From: Bacillota bacterium
GTDB lineage: Bacteria > Bacillota > JAAYKD01
Length of the DNA stretch: 64,000 nucleotides
NCBI GenBank assembly: GCA_012522585.1
Contig: JAAYKD010000049.1
Coordinates: 2,808 to 66,807, forward strand
Direction of reading: 5' to 3'
Below, one piece after another: positions 37,449-56,626 of this stretch (positions are counted from its first letter, which is position 1; the number at the start of each line of letters is the position of its first letter). The translations under genes were made by a program, and so were the position numbers. The notes under the pieces are model-generated. The model worked only from the letters and a program-made list of their open reading frames with translations. It did not search any database and was not told the origin of the DNA.

Positions 37449-38114
37449 TTAAGATTGGAGAGGCGGACCAAAATCCTTCAAATCATGGCTGACCTGGAAT
37501 TCCGCTTCCGTCTTTTCTCTGATTTCGTCAACTGTAACTCCCTTGCGTTTTTCAATTAAGAGCAATCCGCCTTTAGTGATATCGAAAACGGCAAGTTCGG
37601 TCACAATTTTATGAACCTTTTTGTAAGCGGTTAAAGGCAACTTACAAGTTTTCAGGATTTTTTTAGCGTCCCCTCGAGCCGTATGAGTCGTTACAACGAT
37701 GACCTTTTTAGCTCCGGCGACTAAATCCATAGCGCCTCCCATGCCGGGCACCATTTTTCCCGGAATGATATGGCTGGCCAAGGAACCTTCTTGGTCTATT
37801 TCCAGAGCACCTAAAATAGTCAGATCAAGATGCCCGCCTCTGATGATGGCAAAAGACAAGGCGCTGTCGAAGAAGCTGGCATAGTCTTTAACTGTGACCA
37901 TGGCTGCTCCGGCATTGACGATGTCCGGATTTTGCTCTTCCGGGGAGGCCATTTTATCCATGCCCATAATACCGTTTTCCGATTGAAAGACTGCATGCAC
38001 ATCTTCGGGAATAAAATTGGCGACCATGGTGGGGATGCCGATTCCTAGATTGACTACATCACCATCTTTAATTTCTAAGGCTGCCCTTCTGGCAATGACT
38101 TCTCTCGCGTCCAT
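37449..38114 (-). CDS. ctfB: 3-oxoacid (butyrate-acetoacetate) CoA-transferase subunit B
   Basis: 221 aa, CoA-transferase family I beta subunit. Adjacent to subunit A. Confidence 0.85.
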   Translation of the reverse strand: MDAREVIARRAALEIKDGDVVNLGIGIPTMVANFIPEDVHAVFQSENGIMGMDKMASPEEQNPDIVNAGAAMVTVKDYASFFDSALSFAIIRGGHLDLTILGALEIDQEGSLASHIIPGKMVPGMGGAMDLVAGAKKVIVVTTHTARGDAKKILKTCKLPLTAYKKVHKIVTELAVFDITKGGLLLIEKRKGVTVDEIREKTEAEFQVSHDLKDFGPPLQS

Positions 38115-38116
38115 AA

Positions 38117-38770
38117 TCAGTCTCCTTTCACGATATAATCGACAAAGATACCGGGTGTCGCTACATCTTCCGCTTTGATTTCTCCAATATTGACGTAACT
38201 ATCAGCAGTAGCTAAAACTAAATCTGCAGCCATAGCCATTAGAGGATTGAAATTTCTGGTCGTTCCGTGATAGTAAAGATTGCCAAAGGGATCGATTTTA
38301 CTGCCGTGGATCAGAGCAATATCGGCTCTTAAGGGAGTTTCTAAAAGATAATTTTGGCCATCCACCTCAATTACTCTTTTCCCTTCAGCCACGTGAGTGT
38401 TCATGCCGGTAGCTGTTAAGACACCACCTAGACCGGAACCGCCGCAACGAATTTGCTCGGCTAAGGTGCCTTGAGGCACTAACTCCACTTCCAATTCACC
38501 GGCCCCCATCTGACGACCGGTTTCCGGATTGGTACCGATATGGGAAACTATGACTTTTTTAGCTTTTTGATCAGCGATCAAGCGGGAAATACCTATTTCC
38601 GGCAAGGCTGTGTCGTTGGCTATGATGGTGTAATCTTTTACACCCGAAGCGAGAATTGCATCGATTAAAAGTTCCGGTGTACCATTACCTAAAAAGCCAC
38701 CAATCATGATGGTCATGCCATCACAGAAATGTCTTTGCGCCTCTTCAAGAGAAATTATCTTGTTTATCAT
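38117..38770 (-). CDS. ctfA: 3-oxoacid (butyrate-acetoacetate) CoA-transferase subunit A
   Basis: 217 aa with N-terminus 'MINKIISLEEA…GMTIMIGGF'. Confidence 0.85.
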   Translation of the reverse strand: MINKIISLEEAQRHFCDGMTIMIGGFLGNGTPELLIDAILASGVKDYTIIANDTALPEIGISRLIADQKAKKVIVSHIGTNPETGRQMGAGELEVELVPQGTLAEQIRCGGSGLGGVLTATGMNTHVAEGKRVIEVDGQNYLLETPLRADIALIHGSKIDPFGNLYYHGTTRNFNPLMAMAADLVLATADSYVNIGEIKAEDVATPGIFVDYIVKGD

Positions 38771-38788
38771 TTCATCTCCCCCTCATGA

Positions 38789-39631
38789 TCAGCTATATTG
38801 ATAAAAGCCCTCGTTGGATTTTCGACCCAGTTTTCCAGCCCGCACCATTTTCTTCAAGAGCAGATGAGGACGATATTTAGGATCGAGAGTTTCATCGTGC
38901 AGCACATTTAAAATATCTAAAACTATATCCAGACCGATAAAATCTGCCAGAGCTAAGGGTCCCATAGGATGATTAGCTCCCAATTTCATGGCTGTATCTA
39001 TGTCCTCGGGAGTGGCAACTCCTTCGGCTAAGACTGCCACCGCTTCGTTGATCATGGGAATCAGCAAACGATTGACCACAAAGCCGGGTGCTTCTTCAAC
39101 CTGCACCGATGTTTTCCCCAGAGCTTCAACTATCTTTTGACATTGAGCCAGGGTTTCATCGGAGGTACGCTCCCCTTTGATCAGTTCGACTAATTTCATC
39201 ACCGGTGCCGGGTTGAAAAAGTGCATCCCGATAAAAGCAGTGGGGTCAGGTGAGTGAGCAGCCAATTCGGTTATGGATAGACTGGATGTGTTGCTGGCCC
39301 AGATAGGTTGACCCAAGTTCAGTTCTTTTAATTCTTGGAAGAGCTTTTTCTTGATCTCCGCTCTTTCCGCTACAGCCTCGATGACCAAATCAACTTGACC
39401 CGGCAGCTCCCTTAAATCTTCTAAGAGGTTGAGGTTGTTCAAAATAAGATCTTTATCAGCAACAGTCATCCGCTCTCTGGATACTTGACGTTCTAAGATT
39501 TTCTCAATAGCCACTTTAGCCTTGATTGTAACTTCATTGTTGACATCGTAAAGATAAGTTGGGCCGATACCTGCAAAGCATTGGGCTATACCACTGCCCA
39601 TGGTGCCGGCTCCGATGACCAAAACACGCAT
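38789..39631 (-). CDS. hbd: 3-hydroxybutyryl-CoA dehydrogenase
   Basis: 'MRVLVIGAGTMGSGIA' Rossmann N-terminus. GGAGGGG sits 6 nt before the ATG at 39631; the longer ORF-track entry would overlap crt. Confidence 0.9.
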   Translation of the reverse strand: MRVLVIGAGTMGSGIAQCFAGIGPTYLYDVNNEVTIKAKVAIEKILERQVSRERMTVADKDLILNNLNLLEDLRELPGQVDLVIEAVAERAEIKKKLFQELKELNLGQPIWASNTSSLSITELAAHSPDPTAFIGMHFFNPAPVMKLVELIKGERTSDETLAQCQKIVEALGKTSVQVEEAPGFVVNRLLIPMINEAVAVLAEGVATPEDIDTAMKLGANHPMGPLALADFIGLDIVLDILNVLHDETLDPKYRPHLLLKKMVRAGKLGRKSNEGFYQYS

Positions 39632-39647
39632 ATTAGCCCCTCCTCGT

Positions 39648-40421
39648 TTATTTTGCATTCTGTTTGTCCAAAAAGGATTGCATTCTTTCCTTCTGGTCAG
39701 GATGAGCAAAGCAAGCTTTAAAATGTTCGGCTTCCTGCAAGAAATCAGCAGCCGATGCGTCGGCATGAGCATAGGCAAAGATATTGGTCAGTTTATCAAT
39801 GGCGACTTGGCTGTTGTTGAGGATGCGTTTCAAAGTATCGTCTAACATTTCTTCCAATTCCTCAGGCTGAGCTAAGAGCTCAACTAAACCAATGCGATAA
39901 GCCTCTTCGCCACCGACTGTTTTTCCTGTGTACATCATATATTTAGCTCTGCCTTCACCGATTAAACGGCCTAAACGAAAGACTCCGCCAAAACCTGGGA
40001 TGATGCCTAAGCCTGTTTCCGGTAAAGCAAAACGGGCATTAGGAGTAGCAATCCGAATATCACAGGCTATAGCCAATTCCATACCGCCCCCTAGAGCATA
40101 ACCGTGGACCACAGCTATGGTCGGGATAGGCAGTTGCTCCAATTGAGCAAAGACTCGATTGCCAAACATGGAAAAATCAAAAGCTTGTTCAGGGGTATAA
40201 TCGACCATTTCAGAAATATCCGCTCCGGCAACAAAAGCTCTGTTGCCTGAACCTCTGATCACTAGGCAGCGATAGTCGGGATGCTCTCCCACTTCTCTGA
40301 TCGCTGTGCTGAGTTCTGAAAGCACTTCGGTGTTCAAAGCATTTAAAGCTTGGGGACGAGTAATCGTCAAGGTTATAACATTGTTTTCTACTGAGGTTTT
40401 AATATACTTCATTTTAAACAC
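39648..40421 (-). CDS. crt: Short-chain enoyl-CoA hydratase (crotonase)
   Basis: 257 aa, crotonase fold (…[15 protein letters not shown]…). Confidence 0.85.
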
Positions 40422-41607
40422 ACCTTTCGTCTCTTTTAACGATCAGAGCTTCACCCATGCCACCGCCGATACAGAGGGTGGCCAAGCCGATTTTAGCATC
40501 TCTTTTTTCCATTTCGTGTAAGAGTGTGACTAAAATTCTAGTGCCGGAGGCTCCGATAGGATGACCTAGAGCAATAGCTCCTCCGTTAACATTGACTATT
40601 TCAGGATTAAATCCCAATTCTTTGTTGACTGCCAAGGATTGGGCTGCAAAAGCTTCGTTGGCTTCAATTAAATCTATATCTTCCAAATTCAATTTTGCTT
40701 TAGCCAAAGCTTGTTTGACCGAAGGAACAGGACCTATTCCCATGATGGAAGGATCGACGCCAACGGAACCGGAGGCTAGGATAACCGCCATGGGCTGCAA
40801 ATTGTTTTCGACCAAAAAGGATTCGCTACAGACGATCACTGCCGCTGCTCCATCATTGATACCGGAAGCATTACCGGCGGTGACGCTGCCGTCTCTTTTA
40901 AAGGCAGGACGTAATCTGGCCAAACCTTCGATGGTGCTACCGGCTCTGGGATGTTCATCCTGATTGAAAATAGTGACATTTTTTCTCCTGTCGACCAGGG
41001 ATACATCGACAATTTCAGCATCGAAACGCCCACTGTTTTGAGCTGCTTCTGTTTTTAACTGAGAATTTAAGGCAAATTCATCTTGCTCTTCTCTGCTCAA
41101 ATTATATTGCTCAACTAAATTTTCTGCTGTGATGCCCATATGATATTGATTGAAGACGTCGGTCAAGCCGTCATAGACCATCAAATCCACGGCTTCTCGA
41201 TTGCCCATTCTGGCACCGTAGCGCAAATCTTTGAGAACATAAGGAGCTTGGTTCATGTTTTCCATGCCCCCAGCAACCACACACTCAGCTTCTCCTGCTA
41301 AAATACTGCGACGAGCATATTCAACTGCATTGAGGCCGGAACCACAGACTTTGTTTAAAGTCATAGCCGGACGCTCGATGGGAATACCGGCAGCAATAGC
41401 CGCTTGTCTGGCTGGGTTTTGCCCATTAGCTGCCTGCAAAACCTGACCCATGACTATTTCATCCACTTTTTCCGGGGCTACACCGGCTCTGTTTAAGGCT
41501 TCTTTGATGACAATAGCACCTAAATCCTTGGCTGCTGTATCCTTGAGGCTACCGCCCAAGGCTCCAATAGCTGTCCTGCATGCTCCCAAAAGATAGACTT
41601 TTTCCAT
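40414..41607 (-). CDS. thl: Acetyl-CoA C-acetyltransferase (thiolase II)
   Basis: 397 aa with thiolase N- and C-terminal signatures (…NKVCGSGL…, …CIGGGMGEA…). Confidence 0.9.
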
Positions 41608-41636
41608 TTTCTTTTCCCCTTCCTCATATTTAAATC

Positions 41637-42386
41637 TTAAAAATTGCTCTCTTTTCTCCTGATCAATTCTTTGACCATAAAGGTTGCCACATCGTCGGCA
41701 TATTTACCGCTGCCAAACCCGGCATCGTAACCCAACTCTTTAGCCAACTCATGGGTAATGCGAGCTCCTCCACAAATGAAGACCATTTTATCTCGCAAAC
41801 CTTCAGCTTCGGCCATTTCGATTAATTCGGTTAAATTATGTATATGTATATCCTTTTGAGTGACCGTTTGAGAAACCAAAATAACATCGGCATTTTCTTG
41901 AACCGCTTTTTGCAAGAGAGTTTCGTTTAAAACCTGACTGCCTAAATTATGAGTGATCAACATGTCGTAGCGTTCCAAACCAAAACGGCCATTGAAGCCC
42001 TTGCGATTCATGATAGCATCGATGCCTACAGTGTGAGCATCTGTGCCTGTCGAAGCTCCGATGACGGTGAGCTTTCGGCCCAATTCTCTTTTGATCAGCT
42101 CGTCGGTTTCTTCAATGGTCAAAGCTTTTTGCTCGTTTTCCAGCACGACAATTGTATCTAAGTCGATGGCAGCTTTGAAAGAACCATAAGCAACATAGAA
42201 TGTAAAGCCTGGGCTCAGACTCTGTTCTTGAGCTATGACAATATCCTCTAAACCCAGCTTCTCCATGATTTGACTGGCAGCAGCTTGAGCTTTCGCTCCT
42301 GCATCCAGAGGCAGAGTAAAACTGATTTGAATTTTACCGTCATTGAGAGTATCTCCATAGGGTTTGATAAAATTTTTATCCTGCAT
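41637..42386 (-). CDS. kamE: Lysine 5,6-aminomutase beta subunit (B12-binding)
   Basis: 249 aa with the B12-binding DxHxxG motif 'TDAHTVG'. Adjacent to kamD. Confidence 0.85.
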
Positions 42387-42405
42387 TTTTCACACCTCTT
42401 TTTCC

Positions 42406-43950
42406 TTAAGACCAGATTTGGCTAAAAGGATTTTCATAGCGCTCATCTTTTTTAGCAACCCCGTCTAATCCTTTGCCTCCCTGGGAAGAACGAGAGATAT
42501 CAGCGAAGACTCCCTTTTCCAAAGCATGAAAGAGTTTGTTTTGATCGATCTCTTCCAGCAATTCCAGGGCCTTTTCTAAAACCAGCTGGGCTCTCTTTTC
42601 AATCTTGCCTCCCGATTTTATTTCCAATTCTTCGGCCAATCCTGCCATGGAAGTAAAGACCATCAGGGCATTTTCTATACTGAGAGCACGATCGGACATG
42701 AAGGGTGTATGAATTGCTTCGGTCAACATGCCTAAGAGGTGGATGTTCTGTCCAGTCAAATATGAAGCGATGTTGAACATGGTGTTTTGGCTCTGACCTT
42801 TAAAAATATTCCCGGTCATGAATTTTGTCGGGGGCATATATTTTAAAGGAGCTTGGGGAAAGAGGCTGCGGGACAGAAGAGCGTGAGCCAATTCCAAGAC
42901 AAATCCACCCTGAACATTTGGGTCGATTTCAAAAGCATGGCCTAAACCCATCTGCTCCGAGGGCAAACCGGCAGCTAAAGCCAATTGTTCATTTAAAATT
43001 TGAGAGGCAATGACGGTATGGGCTTCCTCCACGGCATCGGCAGTGGTCAGATAATTATCTTCGCCGGTGTTGATGATAATACCGGCAACTGCGTTGATTT
43101 GCCTGGAGAAATGCTGGTCGATTAAAGTCCGCTGCATATTGATGTCCCTAAAAAGTATACCATAGAGTGCGTCATTGAGCATCATGTCCAGACGCTCCAA
43201 AGCCCCCATGGCTGCAATTTCAGGCATGCATAAGCCGGAACAATAATTGGTCAGACGGATATAGCGGCCTAACTCCTCTCCCACTTGATCCAGGGCTTGC
43301 CGCATCAGACGAAAATTCTCTTGGGTGGCATAGGTGCCGCCAAAGCCTTCTGTGGTAGCACCATAGGGAACATAGTCTAAAAGACTCTGTCCGGTGGTGC
43401 GAATGACGGCAATGATATCAGCTCCCTGACGGGCCGCTGCCACACTCTGGGTAATATCCTCATAGATATTGCCGGTAGCCACAATACAATAGATCAAAGG
43501 CCTGTCTTTTTTAGGTTCAGCTGCAATTTTCTCTTCCCGTTTTGCTCTTTGTTCAGCGATTTTTTTCAAGCTTTGATTAATATAAGGAGCCAAAACATCA
43601 GAAGCTGTAACTCCCGGGGGAAGAGCAAAGCTGCCCAGCTGAAGCTGGCCTTGATCCACCGCTTCGGCTATTTCCTGAGGGCTCATTTTAGTCTCAAGAT
43701 GAGCTGCTGCAATAAAATAGGCGGCCCCTATGGATAAAAGTCCCCACTCCTTTAAATGTTCAACCAGCACATTGGCATAAGGAGCATAGACTTGATTGAC
43801 CCCGTCGATGCCTAAAAGGCGACAGATGGTCCGTTCAACTGCAACAGTTGTGTGTCCTTGGACAAAAGCCAAAACATCAGAGGCTATACTGGCCCCATGG
43901 GCTTTGGCTTGGGCTACCAGATTTTCATCCAGTTTGATTTGATCGATCAT
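42406..43950 (-). CDS. kamD: Lysine 5,6-aminomutase alpha subunit (PLP-binding TIM barrel)
   Basis: 514 aa. Its start overlaps the kamA stop (ATGA). Confidence 0.85.
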   Translation of the reverse strand: MIDQIKLDENLVAQAKAHGASIASDVLAFVQGHTTVAVERTICRLLGIDGVNQVYAPYANVLVEHLKEWGLLSIGAAYFIAAAHLETKMSPQEIAEAVDQGQLQLGSFALPPGVTASDVLAPYINQSLKKIAEQRAKREEKIAAEPKKDRPLIYCIVATGNIYEDITQSVAAARQGADIIAVIRTTGQSLLDYVPYGATTEGFGGTYATQENFRLMRQALDQVGEELGRYIRLTNYCSGLCMPEIAAMGALERLDMMLNDALYGILFRDINMQRTLIDQHFSRQINAVAGIIINTGEDNYLTTADAVEEAHTVIASQILNEQLALAAGLPSEQMGLGHAFEIDPNVQGGFVLELAHALLSRSLFPQAPLKYMPPTKFMTGNIFKGQSQNTMFNIASYLTGQNIHLLGMLTEAIHTPFMSDRALSIENALMVFTSMAGLAEELEIKSGGKIEKRAQLVLEKALELLEEIDQNKLFHALEKGVFADISRSSQGGKGLDGVAKKDERYENPFSQIWS

Positions 43951-45209
43951 TTATCCAATCTCCGGTTTCTATCATGACGTTTTAAATCCTGAGGTTCTAG
44001 AGATAAGCCTTTGCCTTGGAGCAGAGCCGAAACACCAATTTCCATCTCTTCTCCTTCTTGACGGCAATCCTCACATTCACATTCGAAGACATAATCGCGA
44101 GGCTGGGTGTAAGCGGAGATAACCCCTTCAAAGTTCCTCAAAACGATTCTTTCCGGGCTCTGACTGATCAGATAGTTGGGCATGACCGGTATTTTACCGC
44201 CGCCTCCGGGTGCATCAACGACGAAGGTGGGTACGGCAAAGCCGGAAGTATGGCCTCTTAAGGCCTCGATTATTTCAATACCTTTGCTGACCGGAGTTCT
44301 AAAGTGCTCTAAGCCTTGAGAGAGGTCACATTGGTAAATATAATAGGGTCGTACTCTGATGTCGACTAAATCCTGGACCAGCTGTTTCATCACATGAGTG
44401 CAATCATTGATGCCCGCTAAGAGAACGCTTTGATTTCCCACAGGAATACCAGCGTCTGCTAAAAGTTCGCAGGCTTTGGTGGCTTCCGGAGTAACCTCGG
44501 CCGGATGGTTGAAGTGGGTATTGAGCCAGATAGGATGATACTTTTTCAACATAGCAGTCAACTCAGGAGTGATTCTCTGAGGACAGACCACCGGGGTGCG
44601 GCTGCCTATGCGAATAATTTTGACGTGGGGAATTTCTCGTAAAGCTTTGATAATCTCTTCTAGGCGATTATCCGAGAGGAGTAAGGGGTCTCCACCTGAT
44701 AAGAGGACATCGCGAATTTCCGGATGGGCTGCAATATATTCAATGGCTTTGGCAATTCTGTCCTTGGCCATGGGTTGATCCGACTGACCGGCAAAGCGTC
44801 TGCGGGTGCAATGACGACAGTACATGGAGCATTGATCGGTGACTAAAAGCAAGACCCTGTCGGGATAGCGATGAGTCAGTCCGAAAACAGGGGCATCCTC
44901 ATCTTCACTGAGAGGATCGAGTAAATCTGCAGGAGATTGGATCAATTCCATTAGTGAAGGAACTGCTTGCCTGCGAACCGGGCATTTCGGGTTATTCTCA
45001 TCGATTAAAGAAAGATAGTAAGGGGTGATAGCCATGCGCAGATGGCCTAAACACTGTTTTATTCCTTCTTCCTCATCCTCGGTTAAATTTAAGTACTCTT
45101 TCAACTGTTCCACTGTCTCGATGCGATTGCGCACCTGCCAGTGCCAATCCTGCCAATCTTCATCTTTAACTGAAGCAAAATATTTATCCTTCAAAGACAA
45201 AGCAAACAC
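43947..45209 (-). CDS. kamA: L-lysine 2,3-aminomutase (radical SAM)
   Basis: 420 aa with the radical-SAM 'CSMYCRHCTRRR' motif and a C-terminal Zn-Cys cluster. Confidence 0.9.
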   Translation of the reverse strand: MFALSLKDKYFASVKDEDWQDWHWQVRNRIETVEQLKEYLNLTEDEEEGIKQCLGHLRMAITPYYLSLIDENNPKCPVRRQAVPSLMELIQSPADLLDPLSEDEDAPVFGLTHRYPDRVLLLVTDQCSMYCRHCTRRRFAGQSDQPMAKDRIAKAIEYIAAHPEIRDVLLSGGDPLLLSDNRLEEIIKALREIPHVKIIRIGSRTPVVCPQRITPELTAMLKKYHPIWLNTHFNHPAEVTPEATKACELLADAGIPVGNQSVLLAGINDCTHVMKQLVQDLVDIRVRPYYIYQCDLSQGLEHFRTPVSKGIEIIEALRGHTSGFAVPTFVVDAPGGGGKIPVMPNYLISQSPERIVLRNFEGVISAYTQPRDYVFECECEDCRQEGEEMEIGVSALLQGKGLSLEPQDLKRHDRNRRLDK

Positions 45210-45221
45210 TCCTTTCGATAG

Positions 45222-46256
45222 CTAGACATAGCGTTGGTTAAAATATTCTTTGAGTTCTTCATTTTCTCTCAATTCCCACAGGGTGATTTCCGCATGACCT
45301 TTGGTATAACCGTTGCCGATGATCATGGTCACGTCCTTACCCACACCTTCAGCCCCCAAAGCTGCTTTGGTAAAGCTGGTCGCCATGGAAAAGAAATAGA
45401 CTATACCCTCCTGGCGCACAGGTAAAATACAGGACATCTCAGCATCAGGAGCATTGACACAGCTGATTGCGATATCCACTTCCTGGTTGTCATTGGCTTC
45501 CAGTGTTTTTTCCAAAACTTCCAGAGCATTGGTCGCATCTGCTACGATGATCTGATGGGCTAAGCCTAAAGCTCTGATCTTCTCCACATCTTTTTCGCTG
45601 CGATCGAGAGCGATTACATTGCCTGTAGGCCCGACCCTTTTCTTAGCTTCATAGAGACAGAGCAAGCCTGATTTGCCTCCGGCTCCCAAGATCAAGACGG
45701 AATCACCGGGCTTGACCAATTTAGCCGTTTGAGCCGGAGCTCCTGCCACATCTAGAGCAGCCAAGCTCAGGTTTTCGCTCAAATCTGTAGGCAATTTAGC
45801 ATAGATTCCACTGGCAAATAAAACTGCTTGTCCTTTAATATCCACCCGGTCAATCTCCGGATGAATGGCTATGATTTCTTCAATGTAGAGAGGAGTCAAG
45901 GATAAGGAGACCAAGGAAGCTATTTTATCCCCGATTTTTAAATCCTTGAGTTTTAAAGCGGAACCAAAGGCCGCCACAGTGCCGATGAACATACCGCCTG
46001 AACCTGTGACGGGATTTTGCATTTTACCTCTGTCAGCGACAATCTTCAGAATCTGTTCTTTGATCTTTTCCGGATCCCCTTGGGCGGCCTGCTTCAATTG
46101 AGCAAAGGAAGCAGAGTCAATATTCAATGAATGGACATCCACTAAAATCTCATTATCATAGAGTTTAGAAAAATCATTGTCCAATTTTTGCGCCCCTTGG
46201 GGCAGTTTGCCTTGGGGCTCTAGTACCCTGTGGCTGCCGTATTTGTTGCCTTGCAT
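45222..46256 (-). CDS. kdd: L-erythro-3,5-diaminohexanoate dehydrogenase
   Basis: 344 aa NAD(P)-dependent dehydrogenase in the canonical position between kce and kamA. Confidence 0.8.
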   Translation of the reverse strand: MQGNKYGSHRVLEPQGKLPQGAQKLDNDFSKLYDNEILVDVHSLNIDSASFAQLKQAAQGDPEKIKEQILKIVADRGKMQNPVTGSGGMFIGTVAAFGSALKLKDLKIGDKIASLVSLSLTPLYIEEIIAIHPEIDRVDIKGQAVLFASGIYAKLPTDLSENLSLAALDVAGAPAQTAKLVKPGDSVLILGAGGKSGLLCLYEAKKRVGPTGNVIALDRSEKDVEKIRALGLAHQIIVADATNALEVLEKTLEANDNQEVDIAISCVNAPDAEMSCILPVRQEGIVYFFSMATSFTKAALGAEGVGKDVTMIIGNGYTKGHAEITLWELRENEELKEYFNQRYV

Positions 46257-46277
46257 AAGAATCTTCCTTTCAAGGAT

Positions 46278-47105
46278 TTATTTAGGATTTAAGCCTAAAA
46301 TCTCTCGAGCTTGTTGGGGAGTGGCGATTTCTCGGCCTAATTCCTTGGCTATCCGCACCACTTTTTCCACCAATTCACCGTTGCTTTGAGCTTTTAAGCC
46401 TCGGGCTAAATAGACATTGTCTTCAAAGCCTACTCGAACATGGCCACCTAAGATCATCGCCATGGTGGCAATGGGAAAAGCCGCTCGGCCTATGCCGGTA
46501 GCTGTATAAGTGGAATCGGCAGGTAAGCTCTCAACCATGAAAAGAAGATCGCGGGGCTCAGCACTGATGCCGCCATTGACCCCTAAAACTAAATTGAAAT
46601 GCATGGGACCGGGGATCTGGCCTCTGGCATTCAGCCTTTTGGCTAAATCAATCATGCCCTTGTCAAAAACCTCTACTTCCGGCTTGACATTGCGCTCCAT
46701 CATCTGACGGGCAAACTCAATAATCATATTCTCAGTATTGACGAAAATTTCATCTCCGCCGAAATTTAGGGTCCCACAATCTAAAGTAGCCATCTCAGGA
46801 TTTAAGCGCAAAGGCTGCAGACGCTCTTCAGCACTCATGCCGGTGGCTCCACCAGTGGAAGGTTGAACGATCAACTCAGGAGGACAAAGCCGGTAAATTT
46901 CTTCCATACAAGCTTTAAATCGATCATAGCTCTGAGTCGGGGTGCCATCGTCTTCTCTGACATGGAGATGAATGATGGAAGCTCCTGCCCGATAAGCGCT
47001 TAAAGCCTCTCGGCCAATTTCTTCAACGGTATAAGGGACAGCCGGGTTATGTTCTTTGGTCACTTCCGCCCCACAAATGGACGCTGTGATGATTAAAGGT
47101 TCCAT
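46278..47105 (-). CDS. kce: 3-keto-5-aminohexanoate cleavage enzyme (BKACE/DUF849)
   Basis: 275 aa with N-terminus 'PLIITASICGAEVTKEHNPAVPYTVEEI'. Confidence 0.85.
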   Translation of the reverse strand: MEPLIITASICGAEVTKEHNPAVPYTVEEIGREALSAYRAGASIIHLHVREDDGTPTQSYDRFKACMEEIYRLCPPELIVQPSTGGATGMSAEERLQPLRLNPEMATLDCGTLNFGGDEIFVNTENMIIEFARQMMERNVKPEVEVFDKGMIDLAKRLNARGQIPGPMHFNLVLGVNGGISAEPRDLLFMVESLPADSTYTATGIGRAAFPIATMAMILGGHVRVGFEDNVYLARGLKAQSNGELVEKVVRIAKELGREIATPQQAREILGLNPK

Positions 47106-47121
47106 TCTTTCACCTCAATTA

Positions 47122-47505
47122 TTATTTGTTTCTTTGCCTGTCTTTGGGCACTATACAGGTACCCACAGCTTTACAGACTACTATCGGTTCAGCTAAAACT
47201 TCACAGGCAGAATCTCTAATATCAGGCCTGGGTTGAATCACTTTGCGAGCTTCAAATTCCATCTTTCTGGATGTGTTTCCGGCAGATGTGATTCTTCCGA
47301 CGATTTCAAGAAAATCTCCGGCATAGACTGGAGCTAAAAAATCTATCGACTCGTAAGCTCTAAACAAGCCTTCGTCTCCATCGTGACGAATCAGCAATTC
47401 TGTGGCTACATCTCCAAAAAGCTGCAGCAGCTTGGCTCCGTCCACCATCTGGCCTCCGTAATGAGCATCGGCCGCACTCATCCGCAATCTCAGCATAACT
47501 TCCAT
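47122..47505 (-). CDS. kal: 3-aminobutyryl-CoA ammonia-lyase (hot-dog fold)
   Basis: About 128 aa. AAAGGGGA sits 7 nt before the ATG at 47505; the ORF-track start at 47523 is a TTG inside the RBS. First gene after the riboswitch. Confidence 0.8.
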
Positions 47506-47520
47506 GAAAATTTCCCCTTT

Positions 47521-47574
47521 CAAATAAAAAAATAAGAGCCCTTTAAAAATCAGTTAAACTGTTTTTAAAGCGCT
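47521..47574 (-). terminator. Intrinsic terminator (expression platform of the lysine riboswitch)
   Basis: On the minus strand: GAGCGCTTTAAAAA-cagtttaactga-TTTTTAAAGGGCTC followed by TTATTTTTTTATTT. The 5' arm overlaps the riboswitch's 3' P1 strand. Confidence 0.65.
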
Positions 47575-47727
47575 CCATGATTTACCTTCATCATGACAGA
47601 AAGACCGCACTGAGCAATCTTCCCAAAGCTAAAGAAGACACGTTTCTTTGCTTTTCGGCAGCTGCACATTCCATCGATTCATCAAGAACGTTCTCCCTCC
47701 CCGATGTACCTTGACAACTGCGCCTCT
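47569..47727 (-). promoter_or_regulatory. Lysine riboswitch (L-box) aptamer in the leader of the kal-kce-kdd-kamADE… operon
   Basis: On the minus strand the element has 5' AGAGGCGC, …GTGCAGCTGCCGAAAAG…, …CTGTCATGATGAAGG… and a 3' GGAGCGCT. These are the L-box hallmark blocks, in the canonical order and at the expected length of about 160 nt. Confidence 0.7.
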
Positions 47728-47750
47728 AATCAGATATTAAGTTCAAGAAT

Positions 47751-47779
47751 AATATAACAATCTTTCATGCTAATGTCAA
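47751..47779 (-). promoter_or_regulatory. Near-consensus sigma-A promoter driving the riboswitch and lysine operon
   Basis: On the minus strand: TTGACA, a 17-nt spacer, then TGT-TATATT (extended -10). The -35 box overlaps the stop codon of the upstream gene. Confidence 0.6.
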
Positions 47780-51181: not shown

Positions 51182-51301
51182 TTATAAAACCCTCTTTCAT
51201 CATTAGCCACAAGATCAGATAAATTATAACACAATTGAAAAACCTTGACCAGATAAGCCTGAATTTAACAGAATTGTTTGACAACAAGAGGGAAAGGGCT
51301 G

Positions 51302-54751: not shown

Positions 54752-56626
54752 TTATTGCGCTGTGTTCATGTAGCGTTCCAATACATCCATCGGATAGATG
54801 TCCAACGCCTTGAACCATTCAACGAGCTTGGCAATCCGTGTTTGTTTATCAGTAGGTAAGTTGAAGGGACGGCGACCGCGAGCATCTATGATGATACCGC
54901 CGGCTGCTCCGCCTCTGATTTTTTTATGAACGGCACGTCCTTTGCCATTACCCATATCAAACATATTGGTTGGAATAACTTCTACTTCAGCATAATCATC
55001 ATGTCCCAGCGGGATGGTATCCATAGCACCGTAGGGAACTTCTCTTGTTACAGTTTCGCCATTGGGCATTTTAGCTTTGACAGTTACACATTTGTCGCCG
55101 TCTTTTTGAGCATTGCCAATGGGAACAATAGCAGTAGCCAAGAAAATCAGGCAGTCACGGGCAAAAACTTCTGCAGCTGCTGTAGGGTGAACGTCAGAAA
55201 GTACGCCCAATTGAGGTGTCATAAAGATAGAGTCAACTGTCAACTCAGTAAAGCCTTCCAATTGGAAAGCATCCAACATCATCAAAGCAGTTTGTTGACG
55301 ACGAGGAGCATGAGATAAAACTCCGCCGGAGCCAACGATCATGCCCAGTTTATCCAATTCAATGATGGAGTCGCTGGAAGAGCTTTGATCGAATGCTTCT
55401 GCAATATCACGAACTTTTTGGACACCTTTGAGGCCTGTGGCCAAGGATTTGTGGTGAATGAAAGACAAGCGCAGGGCTTCTCTGGCAACGCTTTGTTCGA
55501 TGACCAATTCTTCCAATGTCTGGGGAACTGTAGTCGGACGAATCATCTTATTACGGATACGGTTGCGCAAATCACCTTCATCAATATCAAAGGGGACCCA
55601 TTGCATGATATTATCTACGCCTGCTTCAAGCAAGACGTTACAGATGGAATAGCTCATACCTAAGTTAGCTGAAACTGTTCTGTTGAAATATTCATGATCA
55701 TCACCGAAAACGGAGAAGATGTCAGTAGTAGCTCCGCCAATATCAACACCGATAATATGAATGTTGTATTGTTCAGCAGTTGTTTGGATGATACGACCAA
55801 CTGCACCGGGTGTGGGCATGATGGGCACTTCAGTCCATTGCATCAACTTGTTGTAACCGGGAGCTTGAGCCATAACGTGTTCCATAAAGAGGTTATGAAT
55901 CTCTTCACGAGCCGGTCCTAGAACTTCAACTTCCAGAACAGGACGAAGGTTGTCGACAATTCTCAAGTCAACTTTCTTTTCTAAGATGTCACTGATATAT
56001 TTGCGAGCATCTTTGTTACCTGCGAAGATAATAGGCAGATTATAACCAATCCCCAAACGAGGTCTCGGTTCGGCTGCAGAAATCAATTCTCCAATTTCAA
56101 CAACGTGGGTGATTGTTCCGCCATCGATACCACCGGATAAGAGAATCATATCCGGACGCAATTGGCGAATACGCTCGATTTTTTCGTAAGGTTTACGACC
56201 GTCATCAATTGAAATGGCGTCCATAACGATAGCACCTGCACCCAAAGCTGCACGTTGAGCGGATTCGGCGGTCATTGTTTTAACGACGCCTGCTACCATC
56301 ATCTGTAAGCCTCCGCCGGCTGATGAGGTGGACAAATAAATATCTACACCTGTGCCGTCGGGTTGACGCGGGGTGATGACACCGTCAGGTCCTAGGAAAG
56401 TGTTACCAACTAATTCTTCAAGTTCGTGTACCGCATTGCGGACACCGGCAGTAACGTCTTCAAAGGGGGCTTCGACGGTTGTCGGAGATTCTCCACGGTT
56501 AATCAAACGATAGACTCCATCAATCTTTTCAATCAAGATTGCTTTGGTCGTTGTTGATCCACAGTCCGTGGCAATAATGGAATTAATTTCGCGAGTTATA
56601 GGGGCTCGCTTTACTTCATGAGCCAT
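54752..56626 (-). CDS. GlmL/MutL-family (hydantoinase-A-like, ASKHA) ATPase
   Basis: Two ASKHA phosphate motifs: N-terminal 'IATDCGSTTTKAIL' and internal 'IIGVDIGGATTDIFSV'. 624 aa. Confidence 0.55.
   Translation of the reverse strand: MAHEVKRAPITREINSIIATDCGSTTTKAILIEKIDGVYRLINRGESPTTVEAPFEDVTAGVRNAVHELEELVGNTFLGPDGVITPRQPDGTGVDIYLSTSSAGGGLQMMVAGVVKTMTAESAQRAALGAGAIVMDAISIDDGRKPYEKIERIRQLRPDMILLSGGIDGGTITHVVEIGELISAAEPRPRLGIGYNLPIIFAGNKDARKYISDILEKKVDLRIVDNLRPVLEVEVLGPAREEIHNLFMEHVMAQAPGYNKLMQWTEVPIMPTPGAVGRIIQTTAEQYNIHIIGVDIGGATTDIFSVFGDDHEYFNRTVSANLGMSYSICNVLLEAGVDNIMQWVPFDIDEGDLRNRIRNKMIRPTTVPQTLEELVIEQSVAREALRLSFIHHKSLATGLKGVQKVRDIAEAFDQSSSSDSIIELDKLGMIVGSGGVLSHAPRRQQTALMMLDAFQLEGFTELTVDSIFMTPQLGVLSDVHPTAAAEVFARDCLIFLATAIVPIGNAQKDGDKCVTVKAKMPNGETVTREVPYGAMDTIPLGHDDYAEVEVIPTNMFDMGNGKGRAVHKKIRGGAAGGIIIDARGRRPFNLPTDKQTRIAKLVEWFKALDIYPMDVLERYMNTAQ

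Follow-up and report, generated by a model that had tools for sequence, protein, structure and literature searches.

The locus examined here occupies the minus strand of a 64-kb stretch of DNA (64,000 nucleotides, hereafter the window) from an uncultured Bacillota anaerobe (assembly GCA_012522585.1, contig JAAYKD010000049.1). Eleven genes in the same orientation, from kal to the gene coding for subunit B of a CoA-transferase, are placed behind a structured leader (Table 1). The first six of these genes all exceed the NCBIfam equivalog cut-offs and, together with the butyrate-branch genes that follow, they bear out the lysine-catabolic operon that the initial annotation of this DNA had located downstream of the leader. 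Based on these family matches, the kal-to-atoA set is predicted to be a complete route for the fermentation of lysine to acetate and butyrate. The open reading frame listed for hbd (38789-39778, 329 aa) starts at a TTG codon and overlaps the crotonase gene by approximately 130 nt; its true start is probably near 39630, as the family match begins only at residue 50.

The genes kamB and kamC, corresponding to the lysine 5,6-aminomutase reactivase, lie 5′ of the riboswitch described below and, being upstream of the switch, are not gated by it. No terminator was evident between kamC and the riboswitch, so that transcripts reading through from kamC would be gated as well. A signal peptidase gene (51181-50657) and a gene coding for an Smr-domain protein (50690-50307) precede kamB and kamC in the same orientation, with a TGTTATAAT-like -10 element near 51230, ahead of all four genes. 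KamC resembles MutS2, and its C-terminal domain could have split off as the Smr protein. Approximately 7 kb upstream of the lysine cluster, the minus strand also codes for a 624-aa mutase accessory protein of the GlmL/MutL family (54752-56626; Pfam PF13941, 411.8 bits), for which the NCBIfam GlmL and ornithine-degradation models both score under their cut-offs; no mutase was matched among the neighboring open reading frames scanned.

Table 1. Features of the kal leader, the operon behind it and the adjacent reactivase genes (positions within the window; bits are followed by the model cut-off).
Feature	Positions	Strand	Details
Sigma-70-type promoter	47751..47779	minus	-35 TTGACA 47779-47774; 17-nt spacer; extended -10 TGT-TATATT 47759-47751
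Lysine riboswitch (L-box) aptamer	47560..47734	minus	P1-P5 around a five-way junction; RF00168
P1 5′ strand CUGAUUAG	47726..47733	minus	only AG 47727-47726 pairs contiguously with CU (family register)
P1 3′ strand CUUUAAAAACAG	47559..47570	minus	common to the terminator 5′ arm
Intrinsic terminator stem-loop	47535..47576	minus	GGAGC-G-CUUUAAAAACAGU / UUA / ACUG-A-UUUUUAAAG-G-GCUCU
U-rich tract UAUUUUUUUAUUUG	47521..47534	minus	seven consecutive U at 47532-47526
RBS and kal start codon	47503..47520	minus	AAAGGGG 47520-47514; ATG 47505-47503; both outside the terminator stem
Controlled operon, 11 genes (kal to CoA-transferase subunit B)	37449..47505	minus	NCBIfam
kal, 3-aminobutyryl-CoA ammonia-lyase	47505-47122	minus	KAL 194.7 bits / 160
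kce, 3-keto-5-aminohexanoate cleavage enzyme	47105-46278	minus	KCE 431.3 / 382
kdd, 3,5-diaminohexanoate dehydrogenase	46256-45222	minus	KDD 266.6 / 200
kamA, lysine 2,3-aminomutase	45209-43947	minus	623.1 / 525
kamD, lysine 5,6-aminomutase alpha	43950-42406	minus	837.2 / 600
kamE, lysine 5,6-aminomutase beta	42386-41637	minus	367.5 / 280
Thiolase	41607-40414	minus	NCBIfam
Crotonase	40421-39648	minus	NCBIfam
hbd, 3-hydroxybutyryl-CoA dehydrogenase	~39630-38789	minus	NCBIfam
atoD, CoA-transferase subunit A	38770-38117	minus	NCBIfam
atoA, CoA-transferase subunit B	38114-37449	minus	NCBIfam
kamB	50291-49224	minus	KamB 187.6 bits, slightly under the cut-off of 210
kamC	49242-47776	minus	KamC 398.8 bits / 300

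Read on the minus strand from 47950 to 47300, the region contains in order the end of the kamC open reading frame, a promoter, a 175-nt structured leader, a long hairpin with a U tract, a ribosome-binding site (RBS) and the kal start codon. All strings quoted in the initial annotation are found on this strand, including its sigma-A promoter (TTGACA, 17 nt, TGnTATATT), which scores 11/12 with a TG extension in a promoter scan. The TGA stop codon of kamC (47778-47776) falls within the -35 hexamer, and transcription is predicted to start at about 47744-47743, i.e., approximately 10 nt 5′ of the aptamer. Only two sites reach at least 11/12 on both strands of the whole 64-kb window, while block shuffles lead to an expectation of 1.8, or of 0.12 for such sites that also have the TG extension. 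As 11/12 matches are about as frequent as in the shuffles, the promoter is notable mainly for its position: the match alone is unremarkable in 64 kb, and it is the location of the site 17 nt 5′ of the aptamer and on the correct strand that makes it convincing. On the plus strand, a promoter-like TTGACA-16-GATATT (47711-47738, 10/12) lies antisense within the aptamer; its TTGACA is the complement of UGUCAA in P2 and it is probably a chance match.

The leader is a member of the lysine riboswitch family, as had been proposed from its L-box motifs. An Rfam scan aligned 47734-47560 with the full RF00168 model (positions 1-182, not truncated) at 64.8 bits, well over the gathering threshold of 30 (E = 1.2e-14), and this is the sole Rfam match above threshold in the whole 64-kb window. 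The motifs AGAGGCGC (47727-47720) and GGAGCGCU (47576-47569) are found together with GCCGAAAAG and CUGUCAUGAUGAAGG, and minimum-free-energy folding of the leader recovers P2, P3, P4 and P5 (z = -4.0 relative to shuffles). When the aptamer was aligned with those of 30 kal loci from other genomes (31 members in total), 28 columns were invariant, all of them in or beside the junction strings AGAGGNGC, GCCGAA, UGG, CUGYCA and GGAGNGCU, and the window has the invariant nucleotide in 28/28. RNAalifold detected compensatory double changes in 39 of the 51 consensus pairs of these 31 members. In the structure of the T. maritima riboswitch (PDB 3DIL), the conserved nucleotides of the pocket and of the top of P1 are G9, A10, G11, G12, G14, C15, G77-A81, G114, U140, G141, G163 and C166 (PMC3764141, section 17), and all of these positions are present in the window according to our own mapping. 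A162, G163 and C166, which belong to the conserved pocket floor and the top of P1 (PMC3764141, section 17), map onto A47574, G47573 and C47570, respectively; A162 and G163, the floor of the lysine pocket, fall in the junction core, and all three nucleotides are taken up by the terminator.

The peripheral contacts depart more from the canonical form and count against the reading favored below. The kissing complementarity between L2 and L3 amounts to 4 bp in the window (ACGU/ACGU), and the family mean is 4.97 bp for a member's own loops vs. 3.77 for mismatched partners. L4 (CUCAG) and the P2 internal loop or loop-E (AAG-GUA / GAA-UG) depart from the Rfam consensus, and these departures are common to L037, L055, L063, L074 and L119, so they look like a trait of a sub-lineage. 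In the alignment, the variant columns are 27-33, 77-83 and 139-147: the window and these five loci combine the P2 internal-loop strand GAAUGUG with CUCAG or CCUAG in L4, where the usual kal-linked aptamers have GAAGG and an A-rich L4. This pattern hints that L4 may covary with its P2 receptor in the sub-lineage.

The expression platform is reduced to a single hairpin, the 5′ arm of which consists of the junction core GGAGCG (47576-47571) followed by the P1 3′ strand (GGAGCGCUUUAA...); the terminator stem thus starts 6 nt before the P1 3′ strand. Folding of the leader bears out the overlap between P1 and the terminator that the initial annotation had put forward, with a correction to its extent, as in the Rfam register the P1 3′ strand is CUUUAA (47570-47565) and the preceding GAGCG is junction core. 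The hairpin GAGCGCUUUAAAAA...UUUUUAAAGGGCUC has 18 pairs, including an apical CAGU/ACUG extension, a predicted energy of -19.4 to -19.5 kcal/mol, and the sequence UUAUUUUUUUAUUU (also written UAUUUUUUUAUUU) downstream of it. It is indeed a strong intrinsic terminator just 5′ of the kal RBS, and as a further correction its stem contains one G/G mismatch and one bulged A, owing to which an automated terminator scan of the window missed the hairpin that folding recovered.

Folding of truncated transcripts outlines how the two structures succeed each other. In transcripts ending at 47566-47545, the junction is closed by a P1-like helix; in those reaching 47540 or below, which include the 3′ arm, the terminator replaces this helix. 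The full leader folds at -72.6 kcal/mol with the terminator and at -58.7 kcal/mol when the native AG/CU pairs are enforced, and this gap of approximately 14 kcal/mol implies that termination would be the default state and that lysine would have to act kinetically. When GGAGCGCU is blocked, only an A/U hairpin of -5.2 kcal/mol is left, 9 nt from the U run. Likewise, in partition-function folds, terminator occupancy drops from 0.97 in the free leader to 0.22 when the core and the P1 3′ strand are sequestered. Because the 5′ arm is made of the junction core and the P1 3′ strand, the closed state of the aptamer and the terminator are mutually exclusive. Furthermore, the leader (47734-47521) contains no antiterminator between the aptamer and the terminator, and no nucleotides are left for one. 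Since the P1 3′ strand doubles as the terminator arm and there is no space for an antiterminator, the logic can only be ON. The proposal that this element works opposite to the usual OFF switches is hence supported by the overlap, by the missing antiterminator and by the catabolic genes downstream, from which lysine-dependent read-through would be expected. A translational reading in which the RBS is masked was rejected, as the RBS lies outside any stable structure.

We favor, with a probability of roughly 0.8, a transcriptional ON-type lysine riboswitch that mediates lysine-induced antitermination of the lysine-fermentation operon. Transcription would begin approximately 10 nt 5′ of the aptamer from the promoter at 47779-47751, and could also enter by read-through from kamC. 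The aptamer (47734-47560) would be finished before the terminator 3′ arm (47549-47535) is made, and it is in the interval before this arm emerges that lysine would act. With lysine bound, the core GGAGCG and the closing C-G and U-A pairs of P1 would be kept within the aptamer, leaving the GGGCUC segment (47541-47536) without a partner and only the weak A/U hairpin, 9 nt from the U tract, so that the polymerase would go on to transcribe the six genes from kal to kamE and then the butyrate branch. When lysine is absent, GAGCGCUUUAAAAA would be paired by the 3′ arm to form the 18-bp terminator directly 5′ of the seven U, and transcription would stop before the kal RBS. In vivo, the operon would be expected to respond to lysine accordingly.

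The association of lysine riboswitches with kal is common. RF00168 was found upstream of kal and on the same strand in 30 of 80 kal loci collected from one-genome-per-species contigs, with scores of 60.8-103.1 bits. Among 80 further kal loci from metagenomes, nhmmer detected the riboswitch in 24, and an Rfam recheck of 12 of these nhmmer-positive loci confirmed 11 above threshold, the exception being L088. Overall, about one third of the 160 kal loci sampled have the switch. All 30 riboswitch-bearing genome loci, like the window, have a hairpin whose start lies at -6 to +3 nt relative to the first C of the P1 3′ strand. At least 11 of the genome loci (L002, L007, L024, L037, L055, L056, L063, L070, L071, L074, and L075) have a P1-overlapping hairpin with a U tract directly after it, as do many metagenome loci; this direct overlap is also found in L100, L107, L119, L134, L161, and others. 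The design of the window is thus conserved in other taxa.

Near relatives are scarce. No sequence in the two collections scanned (genomes and metagenomes) exceeds 79% identity to the kal product of the window. An exact-protein look-up returned six copies, in samples that include SRR8925801 and JGI 3300038805, and the five leaders aligned, all from metagenomes, are 100% identical, for which reason they give no covariation for the sequence of the window. The nearest intact homolog is L119, the sole informative near relative for P1/terminator covariation in the genome and metagenome scans. It scores 64.2 bits with RF00168, its aptamer closely resembles that of the window, and its -10 region (TTGTTATATT) is the same. 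Its terminator reads GGAGCGCUGAGAUAUCA / UCUUAU / UGAUAUUUCAGCGCUCU: the aptamer core dictates the lower stem, and the upper stem is wholly different from that of the window, where four or more pairs differ on both sides without loss of pairing. The comparison of these two leaders is the best available evidence that the hairpin is under selection as a structure.

The feature that most tempers our confidence in the ON switch is P1. This helix is weak rather than strong, as only AG/CU (47727-47726 with 47570-47569) is contiguous in the family register; beyond a UU bulge it continues through UU/AA, then a 1x3 internal loop, then CUG/CAG. With 2 contiguous native pairs vs. 3-11 in the 30 genome relatives, the window has the weakest P1 of the 31, and RNAfold prefers a helix shifted in register by 2 nt (UUAGAG/CUUUAA), which would use up the pocket nucleotides A10 and G11. 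Together with the 14 kcal/mol advantage of the terminator conformer, these properties would be consistent with a decaying or inefficient switch, in which the interrupted P1 no longer lets lysine compete, the hairpin acts approximately as a constitutive terminator or attenuator after kamC, and kal is expressed through leakage or other factors. The fate of the closest kal relative (79% identical) also speaks for an element that is evolutionarily labile in this lineage. The locus L088:500-706 (metagenome contig Ga0334888_1000084) shares with the window its promoter and the 5′ portion of the aptamer, from the P1 5′ strand through P4. It lacks P5, the 3′ junction core, the P1 3′ strand and the terminator, its kal RBS and ATG come directly after P4, and it gives no RF00168 match at the gathering threshold. 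L088 looks like a riboswitch remnant in which the deletion of the terminator would make kal constitutive, and the kal-linked switch can be lost by deletion of its 3′ half. However, in the window the junction and pocket nucleotides are all intact, including the 28 invariant columns, and P2-P5 are well formed. Moreover, L119, L074, and L149 share a similarly short or interrupted P1 and core-invading terminators, and have full RF00168 scores, because of which the weak P1 looks like a design variant of the lineage rather than a sign of decay. Nor would it make much sense to place a constitutive 18-bp terminator before a catabolic operon of 11 genes that has a strong promoter of its own. On balance, decay is an unlikely account of the leader, albeit the one that deserves most attention after the ON switch.

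It is considerably less probable that the L-box fold responds to a pathway compound other than L-lysine, for instance beta-lysine or 3,5-diaminohexanoate. The catabolic setting, which differs from the usual biosynthesis or transport, and the deviant L4 and GAAUGUG loop of the sub-lineage formed by the window, L037, L055, L063, L074, and L119 could be taken as signs of a changed specificity. Yet these deviations sit in peripheral tertiary contacts and not in the pocket, the strings of which (AGAGGNGC, GCCGAA, UGG, CUGYCA, and GGAGNGCU) are unchanged, and lysine is the natural inducer of the pathway. An ordinary OFF switch by which lysine represses the operon, as in most characterized lysine riboswitches (PMC2258182, section 8), was rejected as scarcely credible, since it requires an antiterminator between the P1 3′ strand and the terminator where there is no spacer and the strand is itself the terminator arm, since sequestering this strand lowers terminator occupancy instead of raising it, and since the repression by lysine of its own degradation would be physiologically backwards.

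Returning to the ON-type riboswitch, a more speculative extension concerns the sub-lineage that comprises the window, L119, and L074/L149. Here P1 might be nearly dispensable, and the terminator might compete directly for the pocket-floor nucleotides (the equivalents of A162, G163, and C166), so that the decision would be taken within the ligand-binding junction and not by strand exchange in P1. The element might at the same time insulate the catabolic genes, in a lysine-gated manner, from a reactivase unit (lepB-smr-kamB-kamC) that would be transcribed constitutively. This combined proposal is tentative, and we consider it doubtful as it stands.

Activating L-boxes in front of lysine-utilization genes had been predicted earlier, as the initial annotation correctly stated. 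ON-type lysine riboswitches have been predicted from 2003 onward (Rodionov et al., 2003, as cited in PMC2258182), and Barrick and Breaker described certain glycine, adenine, and lysine riboswitches with ON genetic logic in which pieces of the terminator are buried in the aptamer (PMC2258182, section 8). Mukherjee et al. listed lysine riboswitches ahead of kal/kce (C. sticklandii), of kal (F. nucleatum) and of a regulator-kal-kce operon (Thermoanaerobacter), and termed the kal-linked genes positively regulated (PMC5584792, section 13). No experimental test of any kal-linked lysine riboswitch was found in the searchable literature. The kind of element is therefore already known, and the window adds to it a new host lineage, control of the full pathway by a single switch and, next to a minimal P1, a terminator that invades the core to an extreme degree.

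The predicted switches of Clostridium (Acetoanaerobium) sticklandii, Fusobacterium nucleatum, and Thermoanaerobacter resemble that of the window in their RF00168 aptamer, in the kal pathway and in an ON logic with a terminator piece buried in the ligand-bound aptamer. A position of kal as the first gene is common to the window and the predicted ON-type lysine riboswitches before kal, and the Fusobacterium loci L056, L070, L075, and L077 have the same overlap between P1 and the terminator. In contrast to these known systems, the host of the window belongs to a different uncultured Bacillota lineage with a kal at most 79% identical, the whole 11-gene pathway is placed behind one switch, P1 is interrupted, the terminator extends 6 nt into the junction core, and kamB and kamC lie upstream of the switch. 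The L-box of Bacillus subtilis lysC is of the same aptamer family and also exerts its control at transcription termination. In lysC, the P1 3′ strand is also part of an antiterminator, which competes with a terminator located separately downstream, whereby lysine turns the gene off. This corresponds to the general OFF scheme (PMC2258182, section 8), whereas the window has no extra element, an inverted logic and a target in catabolism instead of biosynthesis. The wiring principle of the window is also that of the adenine (pbuE/ydhL) and glycine (gcvT) ON riboswitches, in which the ligand buries part of the terminator stem in the closing helix, and a substrate thereby switches on the genes for its own removal or degradation (PMC2258182, section 8), although they belong to other aptamer families and bind other ligands.

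Nearly all lysine riboswitches studied are OFF switches, and the sequence-based inference of an activating form goes back to 2003. The window offers a compact test case, with one strong promoter, one aptamer, one terminator overlapping pocket nucleotides and a complete lysine-to-butyrate/acetate operon. Once validated, a lysine ON switch would serve lysine biosensing and would help explain the induction of lysine fermentation in anaerobes of the gut and of sludge.

The kal-linked switch has at least two expression-platform designs. Besides the direct overlap described above, many leaders of the Clostridium type fold the P1 3′ strand into a long hairpin (H1) that lacks a clear U tract; a canonical terminator (T), separate from H1, follows after another 10-50 nt and is still 70-250 nt away from kal. 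Such pairs of hairpins, located approximately 0-110 nt after the aptamer, were found in L013, L019, L025, L029, L035, L036, L038, L039, L040, L041, L051, L058, L060, L066, L069, L072, L076, and L012; further loci of this type are L120, L135, L128, L154, L130, and L105. Visual inspection shows complementarity between the loop plus 3′ arm of H1 and the 5′ arm plus loop of T, and the two loops match each other and covary, e.g., AAAAGUUCA/UGAACUUUU in L060 and AAAUAUUCA/UGAAUAUUU in L029, and also in L066. An antiterminator relay from H1 to T was considered and is not supported thermodynamically, as P(T) stays at approximately 0.95 in most loci when the core and the P1 3′ strand are sequestered. 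In constrained partition-function folding, P(T) flips under this sequestration only in L040, and it shifts partly in L060 and L066.
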